Below, piece by piece: positions 4,471-49,500 of a stretch of 64,000 nt of DNA (positions are counted from its first letter, which is position 1; each line of letters begins with the position of its first letter). Source of the DNA: Macrostomum lignano (lineage: Eukaryota); the NCBI GenBank assembly GCA_002269645.1, contig NIVC01002219.1, forward strand, positions 62,001-126,000, given 5' to 3'. Below the pieces are notes generated by a model. That model worked only from the letters and a program-made list of their open reading frames with translations, was not told where the DNA came from and made no database searches. Made by a program: the position numbers and the translations under genes.

Positions 4471-6451
4471 AACATCAAAGAAACGCCATACCAATGCTCA
4501 CTCGGGAGATGCTGAGATGCTAGTGAGTGACTTAACGATGCGAAGCTTTTAGCAGGTAAAACTTTTTCACCCAACACATTTCTTCCTTCTTTGCAGTTAA
4601 ATCCCAGAACGGAGACCAAGAAAGCTATGATAGTATACTAAATGGATGTGTGAACAATGTTTGAAGTTTTAAAGCATTTTTGTCAAAGATGAAGTAAAAA
4701 TCTTTTAAATATAAACTCTGAGTAAATAGAGGCAGCAATGTCTTTGATCTCAGGAGAAAGCTCCGAAACAAAGGAACTCAAGCAAAGAAGCCCGCCCCAG
4801 ACTTATCGACTACAATGAAGCGCATGAGAGCCAAGAAGACTTGCTATCTACGATTGGCTGCGATCCCGCCTTTCACAGACTTTCTCCCCCTGTCCCAATG
4901 GAATTGCCATCCGACAGCAGCTCATAAAAAACCCGGTTGCAACCCGGTTGCCAAATCACTGCAGAAGAATTTATAAAGTGTATCATCCTACAATTAGAAA
5001 CACAAGAAATTGAAAGTTAAAATAATCTTACTAGCTCTGCAGTGCCATGGCTGAGCAATGCTTGTCATTAAAACTTGCTTTTCTATTCGGTAAGTGACTA
5101 AAATGCAGCTCCCACATTACTCGTATTTAAGACTGCCTAAATTGAAGCTTTTTACTGCACTCTGTTCTATACTGACTTCATTGCCCAAACGCAGTTTGCT
5201 GCTCTCTCGTGCTTCGAGTACAAGGCGACAGTTCGCGGACCTATTCTGTGTGCTCAGAGCAGTTGCTTCACATGCTCAAAGCCGTTCTGAACGCCTACAA
5301 CAACTTCACGACAACAACCAAGGCCACTAATGCAATTGACTGTCTAGCAAAGTGCCAGAGGGTGAGCTGCAGCGCTGCCGTCTCGGTGGAGAGCAATGCC
5401 ACGTGCGAGATGGTCGCCATAACAACCGCCAAGCTGTCAATCTTAGCAAATCAGGTGCAGCAAGTCATCGGATCTCAGGTCGGTGCGAAGGTGTGGAAGG
5501 CGGACGACAGCGACTGGCCTCCGCCTGCAATGCAGCTTCGGAGTGAGTCATCAATGCATTGTCTCAGTGTTGAGTGGTAACCATTATTTGGCACAGACAG
5601 AAATTGCATTCACTGCAGTTTTGTAACACGCTGACGCTGCTCCATTGCAGACAGCAGCACAGGCAGAAACGGCTCAATCCAAAGCGTCCTCATCAACACG
5701 ACCGGCTGCTACCTGATCAAAGCTGCCGGCGCCAGAGGTGGCGGAAACTTACTGACGAACACATCCGGAGGCCAGGGAGCCCAGGTGAGCGCCAGAGTCA
5801 ACCTGACGGCCGGCACCCAGCTGAGCATCGTTGTGGGCCAGATGGGCGGCTCGACGTCGTTGGATATCGAAGGAGGCGGCGGAGGCGGCGGCAGCTTCGT
5901 GTACCGGACGGTCGACCGGCTGCTGCTGCTGGCTGCTGGCGGAGGCGGCGGAGCTTCCAGCATTAAAAATGGTGAGCTCAGTAGCTGCAGTTACTAGAAA
6001 TTGTAAACTATGATAAGCAAAAACCACTCGAATAAGCAGTTTGGCTGATTTCACTGCAGGACAACAGGGAGAGACTGGAATAAACGGTTCCAACAGCCTG
6101 GGTAGCCACGCCCACAACGGATTCGGCGGAACCAACGGTCAGCCGGGCTCCAACAGCCCCGCTGACACCCCAAGCAATAGCAACCATGGCGGCTGCGGCG
6201 CCGGCTGGCTCGGCAGGGCCGTCAGCCCAAGGCGGAGCTCCTCGGACGGAGAGAGAGGCGGCAGTCTGGCCGACGGCTGGGTCGGCGGCAGCGCCGGAAA
6301 CGGCAGCGTCTGCGACGGAGGCTTCGGGGGAGGCGGCGGAGGCGGCAGCAGGACCAGCTCAGTGAGAGGCGCCGCTGGAGCCGGCGGTGGCTTCAGCGGC
6401 GGCGGAGCCGGACTGGGCCACGGCCACTGCGGCGGCGGCGGTGGCTCCTTC

Positions 6452-7313
6452 TGTAGAGTGTTCTACCTCCCGTTAAAAAAGGAAAAAAGAAGATAATCGT
6501 ATAATACTACTATAAGTAAGTAAGTACACGCATGTGCGCCTAAGCTTTGAATGAATCACGCTACCAGAAAAAGATGTTACCAGAATAATACGCCATGAGC
6601 CATTTTCCCCTTTTAGCGCAACACGTGAATTGTCATGATACTATTTTGGATCAAAAACTTGTCTATAAATACAAGCGATCTGAAGCGGTACCGGAGCCAT
6701 TCTCCCCACGGAAGAGGAGCGCTCCGAAGAGGAAGCCTTAGGAGGACTTCCTGATCTACCAAGTCAATCGAGACTCGGTCGAGTTGTTGCGGTAAGCCTT
6801 CCTTATTTGCGCCCGTTGTGTTAGAGACGTCTCGCTCAAGTCTATTGAGACTTGAGTCTAATTGAGTCTGTTGAGACTCTTGAGTCTGTTTAGACTCCAT
6901 TGGTTGCAGTCTCCAGAAGGACTGCCCCTGATAGATCTTAGAGGACTATCAGTGGTTTCCGGAGCTATACCTAGAGTGCATAGAGGCACTGCTAGAAGAA
7001 GGAGGCTTAATTTAGACCGCAGTTTGGCGCAGGGTACCCATTGTTGCTACGAGGCCTCTGATTGGTCCTGACGGAAGATACCGGCCGGAAGAACTTATCG
7101 GAAGTACAAGAGGAACCAGGACCAGAGCAACTGAAGAATCAAGGCGCCTGATCTACGAGATCTACTGACAAGTTCCTAGCGAGAACTACTCAAGAAATTC
7201 AAATCCGGATTAAAGGTAATTGAATACCTTCGTTTGACTTACTGGGTTGCCTAGCTGTTGAGCTAGAAGTGATGTTCTTGATTATCGAAAGTCGGGTAAT
7301 AAGGAACACATCA
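6452..7313 (+). repeat. 5' LTR (862 bp)
   Basis: TGTAGAGTG...GGAACACATCA; direct repeat of 16191-17054; TATAAATA-like box near 6664. Confidence 0.98.
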
Positions 7314-7315
7314 AT

Positions 7316-7333
7316 TGGTGATCTCGCCCTCTC
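7316..7333 (+). promoter_or_regulatory. Putative primer-binding site (cognate tRNA not assigned)
   Basis: TGGTGATCTCGCCCTCTC starts 2 nt after the 5' LTR; TGG is complementary to the tRNA CCA end. Confidence 0.75.
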
Positions 7334-8029: not shown

Positions 8030-11029
8030 ATGGCGCGGCGCAATCCAACGGTACACAGAGACATCAAAGAAACGGTCGGTACTTTCTCGATGGAGAAAGA
8101 TTTTAACACATTTGTCGACCATTTTGACCTGGTATGTAGGGAATACAACCTACAAAATCCAGAGAAGGCACAGCTGCTGCCACCTCTTCTCCAAGGTACT
8201 GCGCGAGAAATTTACGGCAAGCTGGATGCGGCAACACAGCAAAATTATCCAGCACTAATCATTCAACTGCGCGCGCATTTCAACCGTTGCGGCACAAACA
8301 GATCAGTGCTGCTGCACAAGTTGCATAACAGAAGGATGCAAGCAACAGAATCCTTCCTCGCCTTTGTGGACGATATCCGCCAGATAATTAAGGCACTGCA
8401 TCAGCCACCGCTGCAAGCTGCGGACCAACCACCACTGGGAGCGGCAGAATTGGCCGCCAGAGAAAGACAACGATTGATGGATCGTGAACAAAACCTCATC
8501 CTGCACGTAATAAACAACGCACAGCCGTCACTTCGGGATAGACTTTTGCGTGAAAATATCGAAACCGAAGAAGACCTTTTGCGTTGCGGAATGCAATGGG
8601 AAGCCAGTGCCCCATTAATGACGACAGGCAACAATGAAGTGCAGAAACTGACGCAGCAACTAAACAAGTTAATGCAGCACCAGACAGCTGCTATCGCCGA
8701 ACAAAAAAGACGAAATGAACAAGCCTCAGCCAGATGTTACTACTGCGGACAAGAAGGACATTATCAGATTAATTGTCCTCATTGGTCAACAAGATACGAC
8801 AAGCCGCGACAGATATTCAACAATCAGAAGCCGCAGAAACCATGGCAGCAATATCAAAATCGCCAACAACAAGGCATAAGACGCTTCGGAAATGATAGAC
8901 GCTTCGGAAATAATGACCGCTCCGGAAATGATGGCCGCTTCGGAAACGAAGGCCGCTTCAGAAGTAATGGCTACAGGCCACGCAACGTCAGATACACACA
9001 AAGACAGCCGACGCAAGCAATGCCACGATACGCGAATGCCATCACGTACACACCGGAAAATGAACAGCAAGAACAGCAAGTGTTCACAATTGACGACTTG
9101 GAAATGGACTTCACAGTCCCGGAACTTGACATCAGCTTGATCGAAAAGAAGACGACGCACGAGGACAACACTGACAACACGAAAGAGACGAATGAAACCG
9201 AAATGATCAAATTAAAAGAGACCACCGGAGACAGCAGAGAAAACAGGAAGAAAGTAAATCACAAGACAAGGGAGGAGGCGGAGAGCGACATCGGCAACGA
9301 AGAAAAGATGAAAACCGGCGAAGAAAACAACTATGAATCGACAACAGTGGATGACGACAAAACGAGCATGAAAGACAAAGAAATGAAAGAAGAAGAAGAA
9401 TGTAGAAGTTACGGCAACGACCACGACTGCGAGGTGCGTGATGACACGAACGACTACCAAGCCGAAAGAGGAATGCAGGAAGAACCGAGAGCGGAGAATC
9501 TAAGTTCCGACAGCGATCAAGGCTACGAAATACAATGGAAAGATGAAGAAATGGAAAAAGAACAGGTGAAAGAAAAGCCGAGTTCCGACAGCGACGAATG
9601 CTACGAGATCCGATACAAACGAAATGGTGAAGCCTATATTCAAACGGTCGACTACAAGACAGAGAAAAGATACCAAACGCAATGGAGTGAAACAACGGAA
9701 ACATCGGAAGAAGCCGCAGACGAAGATAATGAAATAACCAAAAAGCAAAGCGAATCAGAAGCCTTCCGCCTGGATCAGCCAATGGAACAACCGAAAGAAT
9801 ATGATGCGGACATGGAAGATAACGAATGGCGATCGCAGCCAATGCCAGCAAGGACAACGGCAAAATCCAAGAAGTGGAAAAACTGGCTATTCTGGATCAT
9901 CGTGATACTACTGATAGCAGTAGTCGCCAAAGCAACGGCAACGGAAAAGCCAATGATTTGTCCAACGGATGCGCATATCCAACCGATGATCTACAAGATA
10001 CCAACCGACATCAAATGCAGTTACTTCAAGACAAACCAGACAAAACCAAAGAAGATTACACTCGATCTCTACAAGGCTAACATCAAGAAGCATCGACAAC
10101 ACGGGATAGTATGCTTCAGAGACAAGCACCTGGTGGAAAAAGTTTGGCGCGGACAATGGAACCGGATCCGATTTAAACAACATGAGCTACATGTGTCGCA
10201 CGCGGAATGCCTACAATGGAATCAAACACTATTTTCAAAGGATGGTGAACTGGAACCAGATGAGAAGGTCGGCAACGCACAGCTGTTCAGAACAAAGAAT
10301 TCAGCCAACGGTCGATATATTCACTTCTTCGGAAAATGGAAAGAATATATGGCACGCAACAGCTACTTGATCAGAAATATTCCATTCTACTACAATCCGT
10401 ACGAGAAAATGGAATCGTTACAGCTGCAACTAAGCGAATGTCGATACAGTGAAGGATGGTGTCCAACGCCGATTCTACGGAAGGAAGAACTACACAGTCT
10501 ACCACTGAGTCCAACATATCATCAAGACTATCGATGGCAGATTGAGCACAGAGCACAATCACACTATGAGGAACCGTACAAATCACGACAATATTTCTTC
10601 GCATGGAAAGTAGAGCCGGAAATTGACTGCAAGCTTCAAAAGTATCACAAAGTGGAAGGAGGACTACTGTCGAATACGTTTTTGGCAAAAGCAGGAGACT
10701 TGGCCTTGACGTTTCAAAAGAAGCCGGTTGAACAGGAACTCAAATGCAAGGATACGGACAAGACGCTATTCATCTCGGAGCAAGAAATACCAGTCTACGT
10801 GAAGGATGGTGACAAACAAACCTTCCTGGCAATCATAAACGGAACATATCAGCAACAAGAGAGACAACGACGCGACATAGAACGTCCACGATTGGTGTCA
10901 AACCGACTGCTGTCAGCAAAGATCACGGCGCTGGATCACAACCTGCATAACCAGCTTAACCACTTACATCGGTCACTGGTTCAGCTGACTTGCAAAATGC
11001 ACGCAATCAACTTGAACTACGCAAGTTAG
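8030..11029 (+). CDS. gag: Gag fused in frame to an internal signal peptide and the N-terminal part of an Env-like ectodomain
   Basis: Capsid-like N-terminus; CX2CX4HX4C knuckle CYYCGQEGHYQINC (8735-8776); acidic spacer; hydrophobic WLFWIIVILLIAVVAKA (about 9884-9933); Cys-containing ectodomain with N-x-T sequons and furin site RQRR (10862-10873). Confidence 0.9.
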   Translation: MARRNPTVHRDIKETVGTFSMEKDFNTFVDHFDLVCREYNLQNPEKAQLLPPLLQGTAREIYGKLDAATQQNYPALIIQLRAHFNRCGTNRSVLLHKLHNRRMQATESFLAFVDDIRQIIKALHQPPLQAADQPPLGAAELAARERQRLMDREQNLILHVINNAQPSLRDRLLRENIETEEDLLRCGMQWEASAPLMTTGNNEVQKLTQQLNKLMQHQTAAIAEQKRRNEQASARCYYCGQEGHYQINCPHWSTRYDKPRQIFNNQKPQKPWQQYQNRQQQGIRRFGNDRRFGNNDRSGNDGRFGNEGRFRSNGYRPRNVRYTQRQPTQAMPRYANAITYTPENEQQEQQVFTIDDLEMDFTVPELDISLIEKKTTHEDNTDNTKETNETEMIKLKETTGDSRENRKKVNHKTREEAESDIGNEEKMKTGEENNYESTTVDDDKTSMKDKEMKEEEECRSYGNDHDCEVRDDTNDYQAERGMQEEPRAENLSSDSDQGYEIQWKDEEMEKEQVKEKPSSDSDECYEIRYKRNGEAYIQTVDYKTEKRYQTQWSETTETSEEAADEDNEITKKQSESEAFRLDQPMEQPKEYDADMEDNEWRSQPMPARTTAKSKKWKNWLFWIIVILLIAVVAKATATEKPMICPTDAHIQPMIYKIPTDIKCSYFKTNQTKPKKITLDLYKANIKKHRQHGIVCFRDKHLVEKVWRGQWNRIRFKQHELHVSHAECLQWNQTLFSKDGELEPDEKVGNAQLFRTKNSANGRYIHFFGKWKEYMARNSYLIRNIPFYYNPYEKMESLQLQLSECRYSEGWCPTPILRKEELHSLPLSPTYHQDYRWQIEHRAQSHYEEPYKSRQYFFAWKVEPEIDCKLQKYHKVEGGLLSNTFLAKAGDLALTFQKKPVEQELKCKDTDKTLFISEQEIPVYVKDGDKQTFLAIINGTYQQQERQRRDIERPRLVSNRLLSAKITALDHNLHNQLNHLHRSLVQLTCKMHAINLNYAS

Positions 11030-11776
11030 AACTACTATGTCAACCCTACGATGACATTTCGCAAGAACACGGGAATGAGAGAAGTTCTAGCAATTCCGAT
11101 ATATGGACATCTCCTGATATACAAGTGCACGCCGATACAGCACTTCAACATCTTACCGTCGAACACTCCAACAACTTGCTACGACAAGCCGAGAATTGAA
11201 GCATTCTACGAAGGCAAAAGGATACAAGGATTCTTGGACACGGTACACAACATCATCGTTGGAACCGCAATACCAAGAACTTGCACCACTGCAGCAAACT
11301 ACTATCAACTGGACGATGCACTACATGTCATTAAAACGACAGGAACAACGGCAAACATCACAGAACCAGAGGTGATTGTCGATGAAACGTACGACATGGA
11401 GGATTTGAAGATACGATTCAACAGAACGAAGTACACACCATTCGCCGATATCCAACTCGATGAGATAACGCCAGGATGGACCATCAACGACTTCTTACAA
11501 GCGTTCATCACTCAACGAAAGATGATTCGTCAACTCTTCACACGAAAGAATAAAGGAACGGGAACACGCAATTTCCCAGTCCTTGTATCGATGGACAACG
11601 CCATCCAATCGTTTTGGACAAACAGCTTCTTGGAACTGCTTAACGGAAGAGGCAGCCTATATCAAGGCTTCATCTTCTACAGCGCCTGCGTTGTTTGGAT
11701 AGTCACGGCGATCTTTATCATCTCGTCGATAGTACGATGCTTCAGCAACACTTGTCCACAGCGAAACGAACAGTGA
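11030..11776 (+). CDS. env: C-terminal part of the Env-like glycoprotein (same frame as gag, after one TAG), with transmembrane helix
   Basis: In-frame continuation NYYVNPTMTFRKNTGMREVLAIPIYGHLLIYKCTPI; sequons NIT and NRT; TM GFIFYSACVVWIVTAIFIISSIV (about 11666-11734); short tail ending TGA at 11774-11776. Confidence 0.8.
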   Translation, partial: NYYVNPTMTFRKNTGMREVLAIPIYGHLLIYKCTPIQHFNILPSNTPTTCYDKPRIEAFYEGKRIQGFLDTVHNIIVGTAIPRTCTTAANYYQLDDALHVIKTTGTTANITEPEVIVDETYDMEDLKIRFNRTKYTPFADIQLDEITPGWTINDFLQAFITQRKMIRQLFTRKNKGTGTRNFPVLVSMDNAIQSFWTNSFLELLNGRGSLYQGFIFYSACVVWIVTAIFIISSIVRCFSNTCPQRNEQ

Positions 11777-14700
11777 ACGCCATCATGCAGAAGATACCAA
11801 GGAAGAAGACAACAACTTGGAATTGACAGAGGATGCACGTCAAGAAACTCAAGGACAGCCGACACCATCAACGCGAATGTATCCATCGATTCCGACAACA
11901 CCAACAGCACCGAGAATTCAGCCACCTACTTATCAGCCTGAACAACACGAGCCAAAATGGCCGGAAAACTACGTCTGTACGCTACACGCCGAGATTGGCA
12001 AAGCAATGGCTCAGGTCATTGTCAACAACTTGCCATGTCGAGCACTACTGGATTCAGGCAGCTCGATCACAGTCATCTCGCAACAATTATGCAACAAGCT
12101 ACGACTCGCGGTACGACCAGCAGCAATCGCAGTTGCAGGAGCAGGAGGACATTCACTCAACATCCTAGGAAAAGCAGATATCGACTTGAAAATTGCTAAT
12201 AAACAGCTGACGGTCCCGACGTACATCATCGACAGACTACCAAACCAAGACGTCATCGTTGGAATCGACACGTTCAAGCAGCTTCAACTACCATTGACCT
12301 TCGACTTCAACAAGCAAACGTTTAGGATCGACACGGTGGAGCAACCGCTGATCAACCAGATTCGAGTACTACCGAAAGTAACTCTGCAGCAAGATGTCAT
12401 TATCCAGCCTGAAAGCGCATGCTGGGTCAGAGCGAAAACGACCAGCGCGGCAGATGAAGCAATGATATTTGATCCACACAGGAGAGTCACGGCAAAACAT
12501 CAAATCATGATGCCTACGGCACTAGTGCTGGTTGCAAAGGATAAGCAACTGCCAGTACAAATCTTCAACCCGAACACAGAAACGGTTCATCTACGACAAG
12601 GAATGTGCATCGGTCATCTCAACACCCAAGCATCGGTTATGCTGATTGAACAAGCGACTCCACGACTAACAGAGGAAGAATTTCAAAAGAAGATCAATTT
12701 GGATGACAGCCCGATTACGGAACAGCAAAAGAGGAAAGTTCGACAGCTGTTGTGGAAGTACAACGAAGCCTTCTGCCATCATGATTACGACATCGGACGA
12801 GCCAAGGACATCAAACAGGAAATCAAACTTCTGCCGCACACGGAACCAATTCAGTGCAAGCCGTACCCGATCGCCAAGCATCTGCAACAACACTTTGACG
12901 AAATCATCGATAAAATGCTAAAGCACGGCATCATCAGCAAAGCTATTTCGGCTTACTCCTCACCGTGCCTACTGGTACAGAAGAAGGAGACAAACGAAAG
13001 ACGACTCGTATGCGACTTCAGACTGTTGAACAAGTACATACCGACGGATCAGCAAAGCCTACCGAAGATCTCCGAACTACTAGCAAAGCTCAACACGGCA
13101 AAATTGTTCACGGTGTTCGACCTACGTCATGGATTTTGGCAAATTGAAATCGAGAAAGAGTCACGACAGTACACGGCTTTCAAAACCTACAATGGACAAG
13201 TATACGAGTACAATCGATCGCCGATGGGACTTAGCAACAGCCCAGCAACGATGAGTCGACTAACAGCATACATGCTAGCAGGATGCACGAACCTGCTGCA
13301 CTATGTCGACGACATTTTAGCCTACGGAGAGGATTTCGAGCGACTCTACGAAGCTACGGAGAAGGCCCTAGCGCTCATTCAACGCCAAGGTCTGAAGCTA
13401 CAACCAACTAAATGCAAATTCTTCCGAGACAACGTGCGTTACCTGGGACATCAGGTGACAGCCAAAGGAATCTCACCGGACCCAGACAACGTGGAAAAGG
13501 TGAAGAAGTTTCCTACGCCAACCAGTATAACGAAGGTCCAATCATTCCTTGGACTTGCGCAATACTTCAGGAAGTTCTTACCTAACTTCGCAAAGACAGC
13601 AAAGCCACTGTACGACCTGCTCAAGTTCGACAAATGGAAGCAAGACAACTGGACACAGAGACAACAGGAAAGTTTCGACGAAATCAAACGACAGCTGACA
13701 TCAGACGCACTGCTACAGCATCCGGACTTCGACAAGCCCTTCATCATCGAGACAGACGCCTCAGGAACGGGACTCGGAGCAGTCCTACTACAGGAAACCG
13801 AGGACAAGAAGGAACGACCTATTGCTTACGTCAGTCGAGCACTCAAACCAAATGAGACAAAGTGGTCAGCTACGGAACGAGAGCTACTAGGAGTCTTGTT
13901 CGCCCTGCGACAGTTTCATTACTACATCTATGGTTCTCCAATACAGACGATAGTACGCACGGATCATGCACCATTGACCTACGTCGTAACTACAAAAGGA
14001 CAGACCAACAACCGACTCATCAGGATGACACTCAAGATCCAGGATTACAACTACAAACTCGTCTACAAACCAGGAATTACCAACAAAGCCGCGGACGCCC
14101 TGTCAAGAGCCTATGAAGTCAACGCCATTCATCCAATCCCTAACATCAAGGAGTTGGTGGATGAAACCGAGCGCGACAACTTCTACCAAGCGGTTAAAGA
14201 CGACGACAAGAACATCAAACTCAGTCCCATGGAACGAAAATTCCTACGCAAGCAACGACAACACCTAACAATCAATAAGTCACGGCTCTACTGGATGAGC
14301 GACAATAAACCCAAGATCTACGTACCATATTCGTTTCGGCAAGCAATTCTCAACGAGCTGCACGACAACCCACTCGCTGGACACCTGTCGGCCGCAAAGA
14401 CCATCGCGAGAGTGGAACAATACTACTTTTGGCCAACTATGTACGGCGACATCAAGCAGTATTGCAACAACTGCCATTCATGTGCTGCATCAAAGACAGG
14501 ACGACGACAGAAACCGCAGCTACAGTCCATTCCGAAGTCGACTACAATGGACTGTCTAAGCATCGACATCACCGGACCACTGCCACCGAGCTGTCTCCAG
14601 GGCATCGCCTACACCTACATTCTAACCGCCTTGGATATCTTCTCGAAGTTTGCTATCGCCATACCGATACCGGACATCACAGCTCAGACAGTGGCAATGA

Positions 14701-15515
14701 GTTTCTTCAACGAAATCATTTGCAAGTACGGCACGCCGAAGAACCTCACATCGGACAACGGATCGCAGTTTACATCGCAACTGTTTCAGCAAGTCGTAAG
14801 GATTCTCAACATTACGCAGATCTACACATCGACCTACAATCCGAAGGCAAACATGGTTGAACGGTTTCACCGCAACCTGCACGAGATGATTACACATTTC
14901 GCGCACCAACAGCCGGAAGACTGGATCATCTACCTGCAATCTGTAACAATGGCCTACAACAGCGCTATTCATCGATCAACGGACAATACGCCATTCTTCC
15001 TAATGTTTGGACGAGACTTCCAACCGCCGAATCTGCTCGCACAGCAATTGCTACCATCGCAGTACGTGGAAGTACCGACTTCCATTCAGAAATTCGTCAC
15101 GCAACTACACCTCGCATGGAAGATCGCCAAGCACAACATTGACAACCAGGTGGCTCTGACCACCGGCAACGACGCGAGATCGACAACCCTGACGGCCGGC
15201 GACATCGTCTACCTACACTACCCGCCACAGCAGACGCATAAACATGCACAGAAGTACAAAGGACCCTATCGAGTGGTCCAACTAACGTCACCAACAACGG
15301 CACGCCTGGCTAATGTACAAGATCCACATCAGCACCAGTTCTACGTACACATTCATCGACTAAAGAAGATCAACACTGACACAGCGACGTTTCTACCGAC
15401 ATTAGACAACGCTGATCGCACGCGTTCAACGAACCGCCACATCGCGACGAAGCACGAGGAGACTCAAACGACAGATGTGAGCCAGCCACATGGCTACAAC
15501 CTACGACCACGCTAG
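11733..15515 (+). CDS. pol: Pol polyprotein: late-domain leader, aspartic protease, RT, RNase H, integrase
   Basis: LLDSGS (PR), YVDD (RT), ETDAS and ADALSR (RH), HHCC zinc finger, D-D-E core and GPY motif (IN), C-terminal YNLR. The frame is open from 11733 (first ATG at 11877), is +1 relative to gag-env, and has no internal stop. Confidence 0.97.
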   Translation, partial: YDASATLVHSETNSERHHAEDTKEEDNNLELTEDARQETQGQPTPSTRMYPSIPTTPTAPRIQPPTYQPEQHEPKWPENYVCTLHAEIGKAMAQVIVNNLPCRALLDSGSSITVISQQLCNKLRLAVRPAAIAVAGAGGHSLNILGKADIDLKIANKQLTVPTYIIDRLPNQDVIVGIDTFKQLQLPLTFDFNKQTFRIDTVEQPLINQIRVLPKVTLQQDVIIQPESACWVRAKTTSAADEAMIFDPHRRVTAKHQIMMPTALVLVAKDKQLPVQIFNPNTETVHLRQGMCIGHLNTQASVMLIEQATPRLTEEEFQKKINLDDSPITEQQKRKVRQLLWKYNEAFCHHDYDIGRAKDIKQEIKLLPHTEPIQCKPYPIAKHLQQHFDEIIDKMLKHGIISKAISAYSSPCLLVQKKETNERRLVCDFRLLNKYIPTDQQSLPKISELLAKLNTAKLFTVFDLRHGFWQIEIEKESRQYTAFKTYNGQVYEYNRSPMGLSNSPATMSRLTAYMLAGCTNLLHYVDDILAYGEDFERLYEATEKALALIQRQGLKLQPTKCKFFRDNVRYLGHQVTAKGISPDPDNVEKVKKFPTPTSITKVQSFLGLAQYFRKFLPNFAKTAKPLYDLLKFDKWKQDNWTQRQQESFDEIKRQLTSDALLQHPDFDKPFIIETDASGTGLGAVLLQETEDKKERPIAYVSRALKPNETKWSATERELLGVLFALRQFHYYIYGSPIQTIVRTDHAPLTYVVTTKGQTNNRLIRMTLKIQDYNYKLVYKPGITNKAADALSRAYEVNAIHPIPNIKELVDETERDNFYQAVKDDDKNIKLSPMERKFLRKQRQHLTINKSRLYWMSDNKPKIYVPYSFRQAILNELHDNPLAGHLSAAKTIARVEQYYFWPTMYGDIKQYCNNCHSCAASKTGRRQKPQLQSIPKSTTMDCLSIDITGPLPPSCLQGIAYTYILTALDIFSKFAIAIPIPDITAQTVAMSFFNEIICKYGTPKNLTSDNGSQFTSQLFQQVVRILNITQIYTSTYNPKANMVERFHRNLHEMITHFAHQQPEDWIIYLQSVTMAYNSAIHRSTDNTPFFLMFGRDFQPPNLLAQQLLPSQYVEVPTSIQKFVTQLHLAWKIAKHNIDNQVALTTGNDARSTTLTAGDIVYLHYPPQQTHKHAQKYKGPYRVVQLTSPTTARLANVQDPHQHQFYVHIHRLKKINTDTATFLPTLDNADRTRSTNRHIATKHEETQTTDVSQPHGYNLRPR

Positions 15516-15635
15516 AGTTTAGAGAACAACCCCGTGTAGTGACCGGGATAAAGAATAGCACTACAGCTTCGCAAGCTTGTCGTAAAAGGCGACTAATCCG
15601 AGCGACACAAAGACAGCGACAAATTGACGACAATT

Positions 15636-15977
15636 ATGGGCAACGCACTGTCAAAACAGGCGCCCCAGCCTCAGCAGCTATATGACTGCCCGATATGTTT
15701 AACTGATGACTTGGCTGTCAAGCCACCGACTATTTGCATCAATGGACATAAAGTTTGCGGACAATGTTTAAGTGATTCACACTATATTCAGCCATGGCAG
15801 AATTGTCCCCTCTGTAGAGATAGTTTGCGACAATGTGCCTATTGTTATTCTTGGCGCACGTTTCAATATTGTAACCACCAACATTTTATTTGCATGCACT
15901 GTTTGAAGCAAACCGCTAGTAGGGGCGTTATAGGATGCCCCTTATGTAATAGTATGCCGCGAGACTGCACGTTTTGA
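15636..15977 (+). CDS. 113-aa accessory protein: N-myristoylation motif + two tandem C3HC4-type RING fingers
   Basis: ATG in strong context (ATTATGG); MGNALSK has G2/S6/K7. RING1 is C-x2-C-x12-C-x3-H-x2-C-x2-C-x12-C-x2-C and RING2 is C-x2-C-x8-C-x3-H-x2-C-x2-C-x11-C-x2-C. Lies between the pol stop and the PPT. Confidence 0.85.
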   Translation: MGNALSKQAPQPQQLYDCPICLTDDLAVKPPTICINGHKVCGQCLSDSHYIQPWQNCPLCRDSLRQCAYCYSWRTFQYCNHQHFICMHCLKQTASRGVIGCPLCNSMPRDCTF

Positions 15978-16175
15978 AAGTGGTGTCGGATCAAACCTGA
16001 TGCCACTTGATGTCTACGCGATATTCGAGTTTTGACCGCAATATGTACTGAAAAGTTTTTAGAGTTTTGACCAAACCCTCGCTTCACTAGACGCGCACAA
16101 AATCAATTGTTTATTTCCTATATTAACTGATCACCACAGAATTTTATTGTTAAAACTCGGGACGAGTTTTTTCGT

Positions 16176-16187
16176 AAAAAAGGGAGA
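16176..16187 (+). promoter_or_regulatory. Polypurine tract
   Basis: AAAAAAGGGAGA, 3 nt upstream of the 3' LTR. Confidence 0.85.
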
Positions 16188-16190
16188 TTT

Positions 16191-17054
16191 TGTAGAGTGT
16201 TCTACCTCCCGTTAAAAAAGGAAAAAAGAAGATAATCGTATAATACTACTATAAGTAAGTAAGTACACGCATGTGCGCCTAAGCTTTGAATGAATCACGC
16301 TACCAGAAAAAGATGTTACCAGAATAATACGCCATGAGCCATTTTCCCCTTTTAGCGCAACACGTGAATTGTCATGATACTATTTTGGATCAAAAACTTG
16401 TCTATAAATACAAGCGATCTGAAGCGGTACCGGAGCCATTCTCCCCACGGAAGAGGAGCGCTCCGAAGAGGAAGCCTTAGGAGGACTTCCTGATCTACCA
16501 AGTCAATCGAGACTCGGTCGAGTTGTTGCGGTAAGCCTTCCTTATTTGCGCCCGTTGTGTTAGAGACGTCTCGCTCAAGTCTATTGAGACTTGAGTCTAA
16601 TTGAGTCTGTTGAGACTCTTGAGTCTGTTTAGACTCCATTGGTTGCAGTCTCCAGAAGGACTGCCCCTGATAGATCTTAGAGGACTATCAGTGGTTTCCG
16701 GAGCTATACCTAGAGTGCATAGAGGCACTGCTAGAAGAAGGAGGCTTAATTTAGACCGCAGTTTGGCGCAGGGTACCCATTGTTGCTACGAGGCCTCTGA
16801 TTGGTCCTGACGGAAGATACCGGCCGGAAGAACTTATCGGAAGTACAAGAGGAACCAGGACCAGAGCAACTGAAGAATCAAGGCGCCTGATCTACGAGAT
16901 CTACTGACAAGTTCCTAGCGAGAACTACTCAAGAAATTCAAATCCGGATTAAAGGTAATTGAATACCTTCGTTTGACTTACTGGGTTGCCTAGCTGCTGA
17001 GCTAGAAGTGAGTGTTCTTTGATTACCAAAAGGCGGGTAATAAGGAACACATCA
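16191..17054 (+). repeat. 3' LTR (864 bp)
   Basis: Identical by eye to the 5' LTR except 4 substitutions and 2 single-base insertions in the last ~60 bp. Confidence 0.98.
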
Positions 17055-19339
17055 CTTCTGCAGGGGCGGCTGCGTGTTCGGCGGCACCTGGACCGGCGAC
17101 CAGGGCTTCGTGTCCGTGCTTCTAGAGTCGGCCGCCTGCGACTCGGGCACCTGATGGCACTGCAACCGCTTGTTGAAGTGGGGATTGGCCAGTAATATTT
17201 TAACTCTGACGGTCACTGTTTAGGATATTCACAATCCTTAATCTGATTAGAGCGCTCTTCTATATGTAATCAATTTATACATTATGCTGTTAAACCAATG
17301 AATCAGTTTCAATACTACTCACCAACTTCTCATCACTAGTAGATTATGCGCATTTTAAAGTGCATAGCTTGAAACCCAAGCGATTTCAAGGCGAATCGTT
17401 GTGACTTTCACTCAAGACTTGTTATATTTCTGATCAGCTTCGCTTTCATGCTTAAAAACCATTTTGCTGTTTTCTTCCTGAAATCACGTCAAACTAAACT
17501 GTTATTTAACTGATTATTGAATCTTTAACTGCTACTGATTTTGCACTCAGACAACTCAAAAGGTTTTTAATTCCGGCTAATTACGAACTAATAAATACTG
17601 AAAGCACTCGGATGTCCCATGCAAGCCGCTCGTCTTTTTTTCCTACCAGAGGATATCTGGAGGTTTTTTTGGACGAGCGGAATAAATCTGTGTGCTCAGC
17701 TGTCTTTCAGTGCCTGCTTCTGGCTTCTAAACGGAAAGCTTTATGAATATCAACCTTCTCTAACTATAAAAATAAAAACTGTGTGTGTGTGCAATTGAAG
17801 AGTTTAAGAGTGGTGATCAGTCACTCAAAAACCCCCACTTCTAGACACTGGGTACCCTAGGTACCCTAGTGCCTAGGTATAGGTAATGTCAAATAGCTCT
17901 TACTGCAGCGGAATCTTTAGTGGCTTGTAGACGTCTTGGTTTAGTTTAGGTGACTCGTTACCCCGGGAGTCCTCAACTTTTATCTGGGGGTTGACCAAAA
18001 ACGAGAGCGAATCAGAACTTCTTGACGGTCCTCGAGCTCGGAATTAACAATAGAATGTGCGCCTTAATTAACAATCGAACTCTCTAAGTTTCTGTGACAG
18101 GTCCTCCTGAAGGGCGTCTTCTTCGTTGCGTCCGAAACGTAATGGATAACTCAATTAAATCAATAAATCCTGTAGGAATGTATCCTAGGAAACAAGGAGG
18201 CCTTTCTCAAATGTGTCGACAATAAACGGCTCTCCAGAACGGTGCTGTGCACTTTTAAACTTTGTCTGCTTTTTGTCAGCGAGACAGCCACCCCAATCTC
18301 CGCCTCTCTCTCCCCTTATCTGGCATGGCCAGGTGTGGAATATTGGGCTTTCAAAATTGACTAAAAATTCGGCTTCTATAAGTTTGCTCTACGTTAAGTG
18401 ATTGACTTCAAACTTGACAAAATTCTTAATTGACTCATTCTGTGTCTAAATATAAAGTCTCGACTCTGTAACTTAATCAAAACAGAAACAGTAAAATGTG
18501 AAGTTTTTCTGCTTTTTCTGGTGTTAGGCCGCTCACCCATACATTCCCGCTCCCGCTCACCAAGGGTCAGGCGATAGGGCTGAATGTACATAGCAATGAA
18601 CAGTGTTTTGGATGACTTTATTTATAGCCTTCTCTGCACCTTCGTGGAGAGGCTACGTTTAGCCATGACAGTTTAGTGACAAATTCTAACCCAGGCAGCA
18701 AACTCTGCAGCAGTTCATCAGTGGATGGCAACTCAAGGCAATGCAGCATCATGGTTATTGTAAAACTAAAATCGAAACATTTATGAAAAAGCGATTACAA
18801 TACAAACCGACTAAGTTAGGTACATCATCGAAATTTTAACACCAAGTTTCACCTAAAGGTACTTTAAAATTAAATAGTCTATAAAGAAATGTGCATTTCC
18901 TTGATTGTCAGACTGCTGCAGACTGCAGTGGAGCTGGTAGTACACAAATTCCTATCGGGCTGCAAATTGGCCAGAAAGATGACGTGTCCAAAGCAGTCAG
19001 CAAGCGGCTAACGGAATGAAACAACCATGAGAGTACTACGTCCCAAAAACTGGCTATCGGAGCAGGGGTCGGCAGAATTTTACCTCAAAGGCCAGATGAA
19101 GAGTCCAGCTCATGGCTGCGGGCCAGATGAGAGTGGAAAGGAGAAATAATATAAGATTAGTAAAGAAAGGTGTTGGGCCTGGTGCGTGGGGGTTGGGCGT
19201 GGGCTTTTACTCCGTGTATCGTTTGTGATTTTAACCCTGTGCGTGCGCCCTTTGTTTGTGCTCACGTTCTTTGCACGTCTCTGCTCTATCGTGACTTTAA
19301 TCTACACTGTAGGTAATTTAGCCCTTGGGTTGGGGGGGC

Positions 19340-22903: not shown

Positions 22904-23400
22904 GACAACCGGGAGAGAGTGGGATAAACGGTTCCGACAGCCTGGGTGGCCACACCCTCTTCACGCGATTCGGCGGCACCAACGGTCAGCCGGGCTCTAA
23001 CAGCCCCGCTAGCACCCCAAGCCATAGCAACCACGGCGGCTGCGGCGCCGGCTGGCTCGGCAGGGCCGTCAGCCCCAGACGGAGCTCCTCGGACGGAGAG
23101 AGAGGCGGCAGTCTAGCCGACGGCTGGGTCGGCGGCAGCGCCGGAAATGGCAGCGTCTGCAACGGAGGCTTCGGGGGAGGCGGCGGAGGCGGCAGCAGGA
23201 CCAGCTCAGTGAGAGGCACCGCGGGAGGCGGCGGCGGCTTCAGCGGTGGCGGAGCCGGACTGGGCTTCGGTCACATCGGCGGCGGCGGCTCCTTCTGCAG
23301 GGACGGCTGCGTGTTCGGCGGCACCTGGACCGGCGACCAGGGCTTCGTGTCGGTCCTGCTGGAGTCGGCCTCAGCCGCGTGTGACTCATCAGACACCTGA
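22904..23400 (+). pseudogene. Orphan last exon of the PAN/Gly-rich family (copy B)
   Basis: Open Gly-rich exon with acceptor CATAG|GA and TGA at 23398-23400. Exons 1-3 are absent upstream. Confidence 0.8.
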
Positions 23401-29716: not shown

Positions 29717-31219
29717 ATGTCTGAGCAATGCTTGTCATTAAAACTTGCTTTTCTATTCGGTAAGTGACTAGAATGCAGCTCCCACAATACTCGTATTTAA
29801 GACTGCCTAGATTAATCCTTTTGATTGCACTCTGTTTTATACTGACTTCATTGCCCAAACGCAGTTTGCTGCTCTCTCGTGCTTCGAGTACAAGGTGCCA
29901 GTTCGCGGACCTATTCTGTGTGCTCAGAGCAGCAGCTTCACATGCTGGAAGCCGTTCTGAACGCCTACAACAACGTCACGACAACAACTAAGGCCACTAC
30001 TGCAATCGACTGTCTAGCAAAGTGTCAGAGGGTGAGCTGCAGCGCTGCCGTCTCTGTGGAGAGCAATGCCATGTGCGAGATGGTCACCATAACAACCGCC
30101 AAGCGGTCAATCTCAGCAAATCAGGTGCAGCGAGTCATCGGATCTCAGGTCGGTGCGAAGGTGTGGAAGGCGGACGACAGCGACTGGCCTTCGCCTGCAG
30201 TGCAGCTTCGGAGTGAGTCATCAATGCATTGTTGTGGATTGGCTAGCAAAGACCGAAATTGCACTCACTCCAGTTTTGTAACTCGCTGACGCTGTTCCAT
30301 TGCAGACAGCAGCACAGGTAGAAACGGCTCAATCCAAAGCGTCCTCATCAACACGACCGGCTGCTACCTGATCAAAGCTGCCGGTGCCAGAGGTGGCGAC
30401 AACTTACTGAACAACACATCCGGAGGCCAGGGAGCCCAGGTGAGCGCCAGAGTCAACCTGACAGCCGGCACCCAGCTGAGCATCGTTGTGGGCCAGATGG
30501 GCGGCTCGACCTCCTTGGAATTTGAAGGACGCGGCGGAGGCGGCGGCAGCTTCGTGTACCGGACGGGCGACCGGCTGCTGCTGCTGGCTGCCGGTGGAGG
30601 CGGTGGAGCTTCCTGGAATAGAAATGGTGAGCTGAGTGGCTGCAGTTGCTTATATTGTAAATTATGAGAATGCACGACCATTTGGATCAGCAGCTTGATT
30701 GATTTCCCCGCAGGAAAACCGGGAGAGACTGGGATAAGCGGTTCCGACAGCCGTGGGAACTTATTTCAAAATACGGGATTCGGCGGCACCAACGGTCAGC
30801 CGGGCTACAACAACCCCGCTAGCACCCCAAGCGATAACAACCACGGCGGCTGTGGCGCCGGCTGGCTCGGCAGGGCCGTCAGCCCCAGACGGAGCTCCTC
30901 GGACGGAGAGAGAGGCGGCAGTCTGGCCGACGGCTGGGTCGGCGGCAGCGCCGGAAACGGCAGCGTCGGCGATGGAGGCTTCGGCGGAGGTGGCGGAGGC
31001 GGCGGAGGCGGCAGCAGGACCAGCTCACTGAGAGGCACCTCTGGAGCTGGCGGAGGCTTCAGCGGTGGCGGAGCCGGACTGAGCTTCGGCCATATCGGCG
31101 GTGGCGGCGGCTCCTTCTGCAGGGGCGGCTGCGTGTTCGGCGGCACCTGGACCGGCGACCAGGGCTTCGTGTCCGTCTTGCTGGAGTCAGCCTCAGCCGC
31201 CTGCGACTCAGCCACCTGA
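29717..31219 (+). CDS. Secreted PAN + ALK/LTK-like glycine-rich protein, copy C, intact, 405 aa
   Basis: Exons 29717-29759, 29865-30212, 30306-30626, 30714-31219 join to an open 1218-nt frame. Signal MSEQCLSLKLAFLFVCCSLVLRVQG, PAN-like DCLAKCQRVSC..C, then GCYLIKAAGARGG / VVGQMG / LLAAGGGGG / GGFGGGG / GGGFSGG motifs. No TM segment. Confidence 0.9.
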
Positions 31220-33926: not shown

Positions 33927-35779
33927 ATGGTGAATCAAGTTTTTCTGTTGAAACTTCTTTTCGGTAAGTTACCCCGACTGCAACCGCGTCATCTTGATGT
34001 CTTCTAACTGATAGAATGAAGCTTAGGACCAGAGGCGTAACGCTTGCTTGTTTCTATTCAATCAACTCTAAATAAACCACGAATCTCTAATCTCTAGCAA
34101 GCGTCAATTCATAAGGAGCGGCCCATAAAAACAGTAGCTAGCAACAAGCACACTCTGCTTCCCGCCTTCGAGCAAGCATACAAATGATTTGAGGACAGGT
34201 AAAGTAGCTGTCTCTCAAGTTGTTTGTACAATAAACATCGCAGGAGATTCGATGCTGACAATTAAGCTAACGCTGCTAGCATGACAGATATTTTTGTCTT
34301 TGCAATTACGTTTCATAATTAGTAAAGGACTTTAATCCTGACTTAAATACGTACCGCTGCTCACATTTATTTAATGCATGATATTTATTACGGACTGCGC
34401 ACTGCCCAACGCAGTTTGCTGCTCTCTCGTGCTTCGAGTACAAGGCGACAGTTCGCGGACCTATTCTGTGTGCTCAGAGCAGCAGCTTCACATGCTGGAA
34501 GCCGTTCTGAACGCCTACAACAACGTCACGACTACAACCAAGGCTATTAATGTAATCGACTGTCTAGCAAAGTGCCAGAGGGTGAACTGCAGCGCTGCCG
34601 TCTCTGTGGAGAGCAATGCCACGTGCGAGATTGTCGTCGCCATAACAACCACCAAGCTGTCAATCTCAGCAGATCAGGTGCAGCAAGTCATCGGATCTCA
34701 GGTCGGTGCGAAGGTGTGGAAAGCGGACGACAGCGACTGGCCTTCGCCTGCAGTGCAGCTTCTGAGTGAGTCATCAATGCCTAGTCTTAGTTGTGGGTTG
34801 TGGACATGATTTTGGCCCACAAATTGCACTCACTCCAGTTTTGTAACTCGCTGACGCTGCTCCGTTGCAGACAGCAGCACAGGTAGAAACGGCTCAATCC
34901 AAAGCGTCCTCATCAACACGACCGGCTGCTACCTGATCAAAGCTGCCGGCGCCAGAGGTGGAGGAAACTTACTGACGAACAAAGCCGGAGGCCAGGGAGC
35001 CCAGGTGAGCACCAGAGTCAACCTGACAGCCGGCACCCAGCTGAGCATCGTTGTGGGTCAGATGGGCGGCTCGACGTCGTTGGATATCGAAGGAGGCGGC
35101 GGAGGCGGCGGCAGCTTCGTGTACCGGACGGTCGACCGGCTGCTGCTGCTGGCTGCCGGTGGAGGCGGCGGAGCTTCCAGCTTTAAAAATGGTGAGCTCA
35201 GTAGCTGCAGTTGCTAGAAATTGTAAAATATGATAAGCAAAAAGCACTCGGATAAGCAGTTTGGCTGATTTCACTGCAGGAAAACCAGGAGAGACTGGGA
35301 TAAACGGTTCCGACAGCCTGGGTGGCTACGCCCCCTTCACGGGATTCGGCGGCACCAACGGTCAGCCGGGCTACAACAATCCCGCTGACACCCCAAGCGA
35401 TAGCAACCACGGCGGCTGCGGCGCCGGCTGGCTCGGCAGGGCCGTCAGCCCCAGACGGAGCTCCTCGGACGGAGAGAGAGGCGGCAGTCTGGCCGACGGC
35501 TGGGTCGGCGGCAGCGCCGGAGACGGCAGCGTCTGCGACGGAGGCTTCGGAGGAGGCGGCGGAGGCGGCGGAGGCGGCAGCAGGACCAGCTCAGTAAGAG
35601 GCGCCCCTGGAGCTGGCGGAGGCTTCAGCGGTGGCGGAGCCGGACTGGGCTACGGCCACATCGGCGGCGGCGGTGGCTCCTTCTGCAGGGGCGGCTGTGT
35701 GTTCGGCGGCACCTGGACCGGCGACCAGGGCTTCGTGTCCGTGCTTCTGGAGTCGGCCGCCTGCGACTCGGGCACCTGA
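33927..35779 (+). CDS. Secreted PAN + ALK/LTK-like glycine-rich protein, copy D, intact, 402 aa
   Basis: Exons 33927-33963, 34415-34765, 34871-35191, 35280-35779 give a 1209-nt open frame. Exon 1 and intron 1 are diverged (MVNQVFLLKLLF). Confidence 0.87.
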
Positions 35780-46504: not shown

Positions 46505-49500
46505 TCACAGAGGTGAGCTCCTGTGCTGCGGATGCTTGGCACTGCCAGATCCGCCGTCCTGCAGGTCAAGGAACTCGGACATCAGCGGCGGCACAAACCT
46601 CGGATTGGACATTGTGGCCAAGTCGGAAAAGTCTTTCTCGAGGCCGCGCAGCTCCGCTAGCTGGGTGAGCAGCTGGGGATAGACTTTGCGAGCGTGGGAC
46701 ACGGTGAACCGCGTGCGCAACAGGCGTTCGAGCAGCATGCAGTACTTCACCTGCGACTCTTCCACCTGGAGGGCAACATGGGCGATTGGAGGTTGGTGAG
46801 TTCGGTGAGATCAAAAGAGATTCAGGGGGTATTGATGTGTCAGTGAGATCAAAAGAGATTCAGGGGGTATTGATGTGTCAGTGAGATCAAAGAGATTCAG
46901 GGGGTATTGATGTGTCAGTGAGATCAAAGAGATTCAGGGGGTATTGATGTGTCAGTGAGATCAAAGAGATTCAGGGGGTATTGATGTGTCGGTGATATCA
47001 AAGAGATTCAATGGTATTGATGTGTCAGTGAGATCAAAGAGATTCAATGGGTATTGATGTGTCAGTGAGATCAAAGAGATTCAGGGGGTATTGGTGTGTC
47101 GGTGAGATCAAAGAGATTGAGGGGGTATTGATGTGTCGGTGAGATCAAAGAGATTCAGGGGTAACTATGTGACGGTAAGATCAAAGAGATTCAGATGATA
47201 ATGTGTCGGTGAGATCAAAGAGATTTAGGGGGTATTGATGTGTCGGTGAGATCAAAGAGATTCAGATGATAATGTGTCGGTGATTTCAAAGAGATTCAGA
47301 CGATAATGTGTCGGTGATATCAAAGGATCTGATTTAAATTGTAAAATTGTTCAGAAGCCGTACAATTGAAAAATATTCAAGCAGAAGCTGCACGTATGCA
47401 AGAAGTGCAATCGTATAATTATTCAACATCAAATTTCCTGAGACAGGCTGCAGCAAGTTCATGCACAAAGCCAGCTGCTCTTGAAAAAACAGCTATACCC
47501 AGCTCTCAGCTTACAGGGGAGTTTGCGATTCCACCAGAAAAAAGAACCGAACAAAGGAAAAGCAGAAATCCCCGTGAGAAAAGCTAGACAACCCTGCAGC
47601 TGTTTCCTGCATCCCGACTGCAAAACAGAGTTGAAGCAAACTCAACTGCCTGCCTGCATTGTGAATTGCTCTTCAAAAATGTTGACATCACATTTCCTAC
47701 TGTATTTTAGCCCGTTATATGGTAGATCGCTTGAAATTGGAATTCCTAGAATGCCGCTTCAGAGAAAATTCCGGGAACGATATCAGAAGAAACCAATTAG
47801 AAAGACGCCAAATAGACATTTTTTAGAACGGCGCCAAATCGAATTTTTTAAGAATATCACCAAATGGATATTTCTTAGAATGGCACCAAAAGCAAATTTT
47901 TTAGAACGGCGCCAAATCGAAATTTTTAAGAATATCACTAAATGGATATTTCTTAGAATGGCGCTAAAAGGATATTTCTAAGAATGGCGCCCAATAAACA
48001 TTTTTTTAAATATCACCTACTAATGTCTATTAGATAAATAGAAATATCTAAGAATGGCGCCAAATAGACATTTCTTAGAATGGCACTTAAGGACATTTCT
48101 TAGAACGGCGCCAAATCGAAATTTTTAAGAATATCACCAAATGGAAATTTCTTAGAATGGCGCAAAACAGACATTTCTAAAAACAGGCATATGGCGCAAA
48201 ACAGACATATCTAAGAATGGCGCCAAATAGACATTTCTTAGAATGACACCTGAGGACATTTCTTAGAACGGCGCCAAATGGAAATTTCTTAAATGGCGCC
48301 AAATAGACATTTCTTAGAATGGCGCCAAAAGCACATTTCTCAAAATGGTACCTAAAGGACATTTCTGAGAATAGCGCCAAATTGACATTTGTAAGAATGA
48401 CTCCAAATAGACATTTCGTAGAATGGCGCCAAATAGACATTTCAAAAAGAAGTGGCACAAAACATTCATTTCTTAGAATCGCCCTGATTAGCAAGTTCTC
48501 GGAAGTGGAGGAAAAAAAGATTCAGAATGGCACTAGGCAAGCATTTTTTTAAAAAAGGACCGACAATAAAAAAATTATCCCTCAGCCGGAACAGGCACTC
48601 ACCAGATCCCTTCCCTCAGGCGACAACCCGGCCCGGTCTGGGCTGAACAGGCAGCAGGCAAGCAGCAGTACCAGAGTGTGATGATCGCACTGCAGGTTGC
48701 TGCGCAGAGTCCTGGCTAACTGAAAAAACGCATGCCCAGCATTGGGCCCGGCCGCTCTCAGGAAATCCTGGCCCTGCATAGAGTCCGACTCGGCACTGGC
48801 CGTGTCCGTCTCGTCAAGGAATCTGGCATGGTCCGGATCGAAGCTGATGACGCCGCGCAGTAGGATGAGCTCGAGGGCGCCGCCCTTCAACAGGCAGACT
48901 TTGTCCGGCTGGCTGAGCTGCCGGAACTCGTCCAGCTTCTTGCTCAGATCGATCACCCGCATCACGGACAGCTCGGCAAAGTTGATCAGGTCGTCCACGT
49001 TGGCCGCACGCTGGCCGTGGCGTTCGGCGACTCGAACCTCGGCCGACTGGCGATAGTACTCGGCCAACTGGGTCAGCTCTTGGACGTCCGATTCGGACAT
49101 GATCTCGCGGTCGGCCAGCTCTGATGGCGTGAGCTCCTTCGGCAGCAGGCCCAGAGTCTCCAGAGTGCGCAGCAGCCTGCGGTTTAGGGGGAGTGACTGA
49201 TTGAGACCAGAGTTACTGGGTGAGTGACCGGAGTGACTAAATTGAGACCAGAGTGACTGGGTGAGTGAGCGGAGTGACCAAATTGAGACCAGAGTGACTT
49301 GGTGAGTGAGTGGAGTGACCGATTGAGACCAGAGTGACTGGATGAGTGAGCGGAGTGACCAGTTCAGACAAGAGTGACTGGGTGAGTGAATGGAGTGACC
49401 AGTTAAGACCAGTGACTGGGTGAGTGAGCGGAGTGACTAAATTGAGACCAGAGTGACTGGGCGAGTGACCGATTGAGACCAGAATGACTATGTGAGTGAC

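Follow-up and report, generated by a model that had tools for sequence, protein, structure and literature searches.

Complex retroviruses and large DNA viruses characteristically carry accessory genes that direct the ubiquitin system against the defences of their hosts, and the literature searched describes no such gene for Ty3/gypsy elements. RING proteins are encoded by arenaviruses (Z), herpesviruses (ICP0) and large DNA viruses; Z is a protein of about 100 amino acids with a Gly2 myristoylation signal, a single RING and C-terminal PTAP/PPxY motifs. In cellular SINA/SIAH proteins, a RING with C-x3-H spacing and a CPxCR end (PF21362, Sina_RING) is combined with zinc fingers and a TRAF domain (PF03145, Sina_TRAF). 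Among LTR retrotransposons, one close system is the ORF3 of bdelloid elements, a non-env gene captured 3' of pol and described as a separate spliced unit, examples of which encode a GDSL esterase or a DEDDy exonuclease (PMC5408684). ORF3 is single, with no paralogue array, and neither "ring" nor "ubiquitin" occurs in the main text of that paper. In another example, the CERV accessory protein of Cer1, a Ty3/gypsy element of C. elegans, is made from a spliced message; it overlaps gag, possesses a C4-type Cys loop and a G-like domain, has a role in RNA export and no described RING (PMC10309623). Finally, Ty3/gypsy "errantiviruses" with a GAG-ENV-POL gene order and an HSV/gB-type ENV have been catalogued in Platyhelminthes, Nematoda and Bryozoa, including the entry Platyhelminthes_Rhabditophora_Mlig_errantivirus_2, which is labelled ENV_HSV (PMC13524379).

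The locus described here lies in the flatworm Macrostomum lignano. The window, which is the whole stretch of DNA analysed, comprises 64,000 nucleotides of contig NIVC01002219.1 (positions 62,001 to 126,000 of the forward strand) and contains a young Ty3/gypsy LTR element with an env-like gene between gag and pol and, 3' of pol, a small ORF encoding two RINGs (ORF A). The features of the element, in window coordinates, are as follows.

6448-6451 and 17055-17058: 4-bp target duplication flanking the element
6452..7313, + strand: 5' LTR (TGT...CA), identical to the 3' LTR at 858 of 862 aligned bases
6792..7077, + strand: GT..AG intron inside the LTR, probably the leader of spliced messages
7316..7327, + strand: primer-binding site, a 12-mer identical to that of a catalogued flatworm element (PMC13524379, supplement)
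8030..11029, + strand: gag (CCHC knuckle), acidic linker, signal-peptide-like stretch and N-terminal part of the env-like ectodomain
about 9872-9952, + strand: hydrophobic, signal-peptide-like stretch inside the gag-env frame
11030..11776, + strand: C-terminal part of the env-like protein, with a transmembrane segment (about 11657-11755)
11877..15515, + strand: env tail, followed by PR-RT-RNase H-integrase
11901-11912 and 11922-11933, + strand: PTAP and PPxY, respectively, in the env tail
15531..15593, + strand: non-coding block conserved upstream of ORF A, possibly folding as a pseudoknot plus hairpin
15636..15977, + strand: ORF A in truncated form, with 113 of the 222 amino acids
15687..15818, + strand: RING1, C3HC4, with SINA-like spacing and an invariant P-x-C-R
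15834..15947, + strand: RING2, an internal duplicate with no Arg after its last Cys
15978..16108, + strand: decayed remnant of the C-terminal domain of ORF A
about 16108-16141: deletion junction, with about 1.06 kb lost, ORF B included
16176..16187, + strand: polypurine tract
16191..17054, + strand: 3' LTR

Paired LTRs, primer-binding site, polypurine tract and target duplication are all present, and the pol domains run in the order PR-RT-RNase H-integrase. In the window copy the gag-env frame is broken by a stop at 11027-11029, and a change of frame precedes pol; in three of the 26 copies examined, a single open frame of 2498 amino acids remains, in which one polypeptide chain contains Gag, the signal peptide and env. 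The ectodomain, which contains cysteines, five sequons and an RQRR (furin) site, is preceded by the signal-like stretch and followed by the transmembrane segment. No Pfam or PDB sequence matches the env-like protein, and the ENV_HSV (gB-type) label comes from the matching supplement row. The element family has already been catalogued (PMC13524379, supplement): Mlig_errantivirus_2 shares its gene order and 12-nt primer-binding site with the window element, both are multi-copy and young, and the LTR measures 863 nt in the former versus 862-864 nt in the latter, with spans of 10,591 and 10,603 nt, respectively. The main text of that source describes no 3' cassette, and "ring", "accessory" and "zinc finger" do not occur in it.

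Several side observations concern the element and its surroundings. The C-terminal part of env (about 11000-11650) is a recombinant segment; it is uncovered by contigs of four of four runs at 90% identity, and its protein is only 91% identical to siblings that are otherwise 99% identical. The PTAP of the env tail is kept in a distant lineage (C391). A dispersed repeat occupies 5598-6415, 22963-23262, 30253-31072 and 34818-35638, and the end of one of these copy regions is where the LTR element has inserted. On the reverse strand, a frame at 48582-49436 resembles, by eye, a nuclear-receptor ligand-binding domain and is probably a host exon. Elsewhere in the genome, the stretch C2121:1-70000 holds dense nests of young and decayed family copies, all on one strand, and, by analogy, this nest resembles a unistrand, piRNA-cluster-like trap; C1130 and C87 are likewise nested.

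The ORF flagged by the first-pass annotation stands as described in most of its visible features. It runs from an ATG at 15636 to a stop at 15977, begins MGNALSK with an A at -3 and a G at +4, and sits 3' of the pol stop (15515) and 5' of the polypurine tract. Its 15 cysteines are arranged as C-x2-C...C-x3-H-x2-C-x2-C...C-x2-C, twice. When the pol-to-LTR stretch was shuffled 2000 times, an ORF of such length arose in 8 shuffles. The same annotation had placed the ORF in the usual position of env and called it intact, and neither description holds. Between gag and pol the element already has an env-like gene of its own; the RING ORF is therefore additional and replaces no env. As for intactness, a genome search with the ORF scored 150 of 199 candidates, and the best 30 of these scored matches all sit in this element. 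The encoded lengths are 113 (one, the window), 124 (15), 144 (six), 222 (six), 141 (one) and 202 (one) amino acids, so that an end at 113 is unique to the window copy among them. This end is rare and not strictly unique because an older, diverged short copy (C3229), in which the last RING2 Cys is lost, stops at the same codon. The distance from ATG to LTR is about 1614 nt in long copies versus about 555 nt, and in the window a reading-frame remnant of the lost C-terminal domain runs on to about 16108. Taken as a whole, the window ORF is a real but truncated allele of a 222-amino-acid ORF A, and its sublineage has lost about 1.06 kb, leaving ORFs of 113-144 amino acids. Up to about 15935 the window allele is 96-100% identical to a long-cassette copy, and after about 15935 it is 90-97% identical to C3229; these identities mark it as a recombinant of the long-cassette lineage and a short, deleted one.

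In long sibling copies, the 222 amino acids of ORF A comprise the two RINGs and a helical domain of about 110 residues, and a second ORF (ORF B, 210 amino acids) of the same architecture follows. Cassettes carry one or two paralogues of ORF A, of 200-212 amino acids, and lineages whose pol is 66-72% identical possess two or three such ORFs at the same place after pol. Across 19 natural ORFs, 20-73% identical to ORF A, 18 alignment columns are invariant, including 14 metal ligands, P58, R61, W147 and P148. Seven of the eight metal ligands of each RING are invariant and the eighth is present in 18 of 19 proteins, while an Arg follows RING1 in 19/19 and RING2 in 0/19. The two RINGs are recognisably homologous to each other (hhalign 95.5%, E 1.4e-8).

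The likeness of RING1 to SINA/SIAH lies in its C-x3-H spacing and CPxCR end, and the host's own SINA RING, with the same spacing, scores 29.7 bits on the RING1 profile. The difference lies in what follows, which is zinc fingers and a TRAF domain in SINA/SIAH and a second RING plus an unrelated helical domain in the cassette; none of the 19 cassette proteins matches Sina_TRAF, and the seven Sina_TRAF matches in the genome lie elsewhere. Pfam Sina_RING is matched by 17 of the 19 family members at E<=0.05. The window ORF itself reaches the cut-off of no Pfam RING family (zf-RING_2, 23.5 versus 27.3 bits; Sina_RING, 20.4 versus 29.3), and one relative (P0155) exceeds that of zf-C3HC4_3 (34 versus 27). 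In a profile search, RING1B, SIAH1 and TRIM5/21 were matched at E of about 2e-5 to 7e-5. Among 1.84 billion representatives, 156 scored at E<=0.001, and whole-architecture matches among those 156 were limited to a same-species gene model and three Logan proteins; two others cover part of the architecture, and the remainder are essentially RING motifs. One further full-length relative came from a separate search. In a tree, ORF A is joined by one Logan protein and the paralogues by three, subject to a long-branch warning. A UniRef model labelled Macrostomum lignano is nearly identical to ORF B. A word-indexed protein search with the 222-amino-acid protein scored 0 of 93 candidates, and a search of the ESM Atlas returned only generic viral RING clusters, with recognition below the mark.

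A non-autonomous lineage (C301, C525) retains gag, partial env and both RING ORFs intact, with most of pol deleted, and has several near-identical matches among the matches listed. At C1063:110238-112245, fragments that we take to be a Polinton-like protein-primed DNA polymerase lie 7 kb from a cassette fragment; a Polinton was rejected as donor of that cassette, which keeps the LTR element's pol end, block and polypurine tract. C356/C1588, a frameshifted fragment, was likewise rejected as a host donor.

The structure models of the protein are confident (pLDDT 86 and 93) and give the fingers a predicted RING fold, at weak match scores. Model residues 10-70 align to RING E3 domains with Z of 3.3-4.4 and rmsd mostly of 2-3.5 A; the best RING1 alignment has Z 4.4 and rmsd 2.0 over 48 residues, and RING2 yields weak RING rows with rmsd 2.4-2.7 over about 50 columns. 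No fold match had a Foldseek E<=0.001, and all Z scores were below 5. Arenavirus Z, ICP0 and the ligases of large DNA viruses, which share with the cassette a virus-encoded RING, appear as weak structural rows only, and no viral RING protein in the libraries searched matches the RING-RING-helical architecture over its full length. The C-terminal domain of ORF A is predicted to be all-helical, with four to five helices; searches with it returned no Z of 5 or more and no Foldseek E<=0.001, an empty result that does not show a new fold. A complex prediction for ORF A and ORF B, made without alignments, scored 0.00 and speaks neither for nor against a complex.

Codon models yield omega values of 0.105 for RING1, 0.134 for RING2 and 0.149 for the C-terminal helical domain of ORF A, with 0.123 and 0.163 for paralogues and 0.050 for pol; pairwise omega is 0.06-0.43 where dS is unsaturated. 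These values indicate purifying selection on all parts of the cassette across lineages, and the domain lost from the window allele is therefore as constrained as the RINGs. Omega is uniformly low by region, with no sign of the rapid change expected from an arms race.

Despite this long-term constraint, the gene appears dispensable to individual copies. Short-cassette copies make up 22 of the 30 best matches, and LTR pairs are at least 99.1% identical in 15 of 17 short copies and at least 99.7% identical in five of five long ones. In another sublineage, codon 71 is a stop and a RING1 Cys is missing in all ten copies checked, and this lineage with a dead ORF A numbers 20 copies among the matches listed. 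Young short copies and an amplified dead-ORF sublineage together imply that the gene is not needed in cis. Shared variants in 21 short copies comprise four non-synonymous and seven synonymous changes, whereas the pol of 17 colinear copies has 2 and 35, respectively (p=0.019; L029, whose start was unmatched, was left out, and four of 21 pol stretches were non-colinear). Short copies thus show relaxed constraint, on a small count that partly reflects recombination, and ligand-breaking variants are present in single short copies. The gag-env-pol frame is fully open in 0 of 20 short and three of six long copies; these frame breaks, which differ by copy, were discounted as evidence because assembly errors would look alike, with small indels also found between otherwise identical LTR pairs. 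The first-pass annotation had named degradation in sibling elements as grounds for abandoning a functional reading; the ORF is indeed degraded in recently amplified sublineages, and that objection holds in part.

The annotation had also read the T-richness of the ORF as a sign of recent capture. The bias itself is confirmed, with T in 32 of 47 NNY codons versus 112 of 379 in pol (p=4e-7), but all seven ORF A lineages are T-rich (NNY T fraction 0.52-0.65) and the ten scored paralogues are not (0.15-0.47). A feature common to ORF A lineages and lacking in paralogues does not, therefore, date a capture.

The ORF is covered by contigs of all four runs, whose RNA status is presumed; among the listed datasets that contain the sequence, none is registered as RNA. 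The end of pol and the ORF are bridged by contigs in two runs, and in one run the sequence extends into the long cassette. In run X2 (one of four runs; RNA status again presumed), one contig skips from the GT donor at 6791 to sequence after the AG at 7077, and a UniRef gene model, automatic and no proof, joins the LTR donor directly to the start of ORF B. A second donor-like site lies within the LTR at 7216. YAG stands within 0-2 nt of the ATG at 10 of 12 paralogue starts versus 0 of 8 ORF A starts, and we infer that the paralogues are made from spliced messages that join the LTR donor to CAG-ATG acceptors. For ORF A, no joint was found among those listed for contigs of the four runs, although contigs cannot prove absence.

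Just upstream of ORF A, the 63-nt non-coding block is kept in all aligned cassette lineages, whose synonymous sites are saturated. In a pseudoknot-plus-hairpin model, 98% of cells are paired (after removal of the C356 row, which is non-homologous there, from the DNA alignment), and two of 17 pairs have changed on both sides, reflecting few independent events. Single-sequence folding is no better than that of shuffles (z -0.1 to -0.6), and Rfam contains no credible match to the block. HDV-, twister- and pistol-like readings, compared by eye with the consensus of each, do not fit. Possible roles of the block are translation entry, exonuclease blocking and packaging.

The reading that we favour, with a probability of roughly 0.55, treats the ORF as a shortened allele of the cassette's first gene and the full-length products as putative RING ligases by which the element removes or re-routes a restriction or silencing protein of its host. 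The earlier suggestion of a RING E3 ligase draws support from conservation, as the RING1 ligands and P-x-C-R are invariant and omega is about 0.1. A SINA-like RING would have been captured, duplicated and fused to the helical domain, with the gene then duplicated into a cassette. In RING E3 ligases, an Arg or Lys after the last Cys pair primes E2~ubiquitin. Because this Arg follows RING1 in every family member and RING2 in none, RING1 is likely to be catalytic and RING2 is likely not to be; RING1, with its conserved ligands, would bind and activate E2~ubiquitin, RING2 may be a structural or dimerisation module, and the helical domain with its invariant W-P would pick the substrate. The cassette ligases would thereby ubiquitinate host factors, with ORF A of some lineages perhaps targeted to membranes by myristoylation. 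The window allele, which lacks the presumed substrate domain, is probably crippled, and its element may rely on full-cassette relatives or do without. A more elaborate version, which we hold only tentatively, sees here a counterpart to the accessory region of complex retroviruses, evolved in an enveloped invertebrate retrotransposon lineage. Two or three paralogous RING ligases, produced by alternative splicing, would each have a separate substrate domain that resembles no recognised fold, one of them would be membrane-anchored, and they would degrade restriction or piRNA-pathway proteins of the host while short copies cheat by using these products in trans.

Other readings assign the ORF a different task. 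Myristoylated ORF A may instead act as a membrane-anchored ligase that ubiquitinates Gag or the env tail and helps to recruit ESCRT for release. The element does possess an env-like gene, PTAP occurs in the env tail of three of four lineages inspected, with PPxY in the window copy, and the MGNA-x-S-K/R start persists in two lineages whose synonymous sites are nearly saturated, with Ser6 and the basic residue 7 retained across synonymous changes. Membrane targeting of these lineages, the window's included, is plausible as a late addition or the survivor of frequent loss. Nevertheless, Gly2 is missing from five of the seven ORF A lineages and all 12 aligned paralogues, and is replaced in two young copies; the N-terminal extension is no better conserved (9/14 residues) than the protein overall (73%); and PPxY motifs, which recruit host HECT ligases, would do so without help. 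A budding role is thus unlikely. The first-pass annotation had also raised a matrix-like factor, citing arenavirus Z, and it was correct that Gag, which starts MARR, lacks a Gly2 signal of its own. In its full form this proposal has an arenavirus-Z-like matrix take over from a myristoylated Gag in lining the membrane. The small ORF with Gly2 and a RING fits this proposal, as does a weak row for Lassa Z against RING2 (rank 44, E 2.5). It founders on the natural protein of 222 residues and three domains, as opposed to the single RING and about 100 amino acids of Z, on an env-like gene elsewhere, and on Gag made in one chain with signal peptide and env. Moreover, PTAP and PPxY are absent from the window ORF, PTAP/PSAP and PPxY from all 19 cassette proteins (one has a YPxnL-like word), and the gene is dispensable in amplified sublineages, unlike a structural protein. 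With Gly2 in only two of seven ORF A lineages and late motifs in the env tail, a Z-like matrix is highly improbable.

The RING-only form could itself have been selected, as an E2 sponge or through dominant-negative pairing with ligases of the host or of sibling copies. In its favour, the window allele retains two complete RINGs, many short copies exist and are young, and a stop right after RING2 recurs in C3229. Yet the end points vary (113, 124, 144), the last RING2 Cys is gone in C3229, the intact RINGs of the window are explained by their recent re-acquisition from the long-cassette lineage, constraint is relaxed, some single short copies carry ligand-breaking variants, and amplification has also occurred in a sublineage whose ORF is dead; selection for such a decoy seems rather improbable. 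Equally improbable, in our estimate, is a non-catalytic regulator, Rev- or CERV-like, that exports or protects unspliced genomic RNA through the block before ORF A. The LTR holds splice sites, and unspliced RNA must therefore escape retention; a conserved, structured block adjoins the cassette; and Cer1 offers a precedent in CERV, an accessory protein that has a Cys-rich loop and comes from a spliced message (PMC10309623). Set against this are the invariant P-x-C-R, which argues for E2 use, the lack of any noticed likeness to the described domains of CERV, and the lineages without most of the cassette that keep the block and still amplify.

The putative ligase cassette was not found in print: the literature searched reports no LTR retrotransposon with an accessory gene for a RING protein (supplements outside that search may annotate these ORFs), and "ring" has no occurrences in the main text of PMC12801592. 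What was flagged is a truncated form of ORF A from an already catalogued element family, and the function proposed here is read from sequence only. Even so, the combination of a conserved ligase cassette, a recently active element and a tractable flatworm means that the substrates of these putative ligases may offer a route to the restriction factors of invertebrates.
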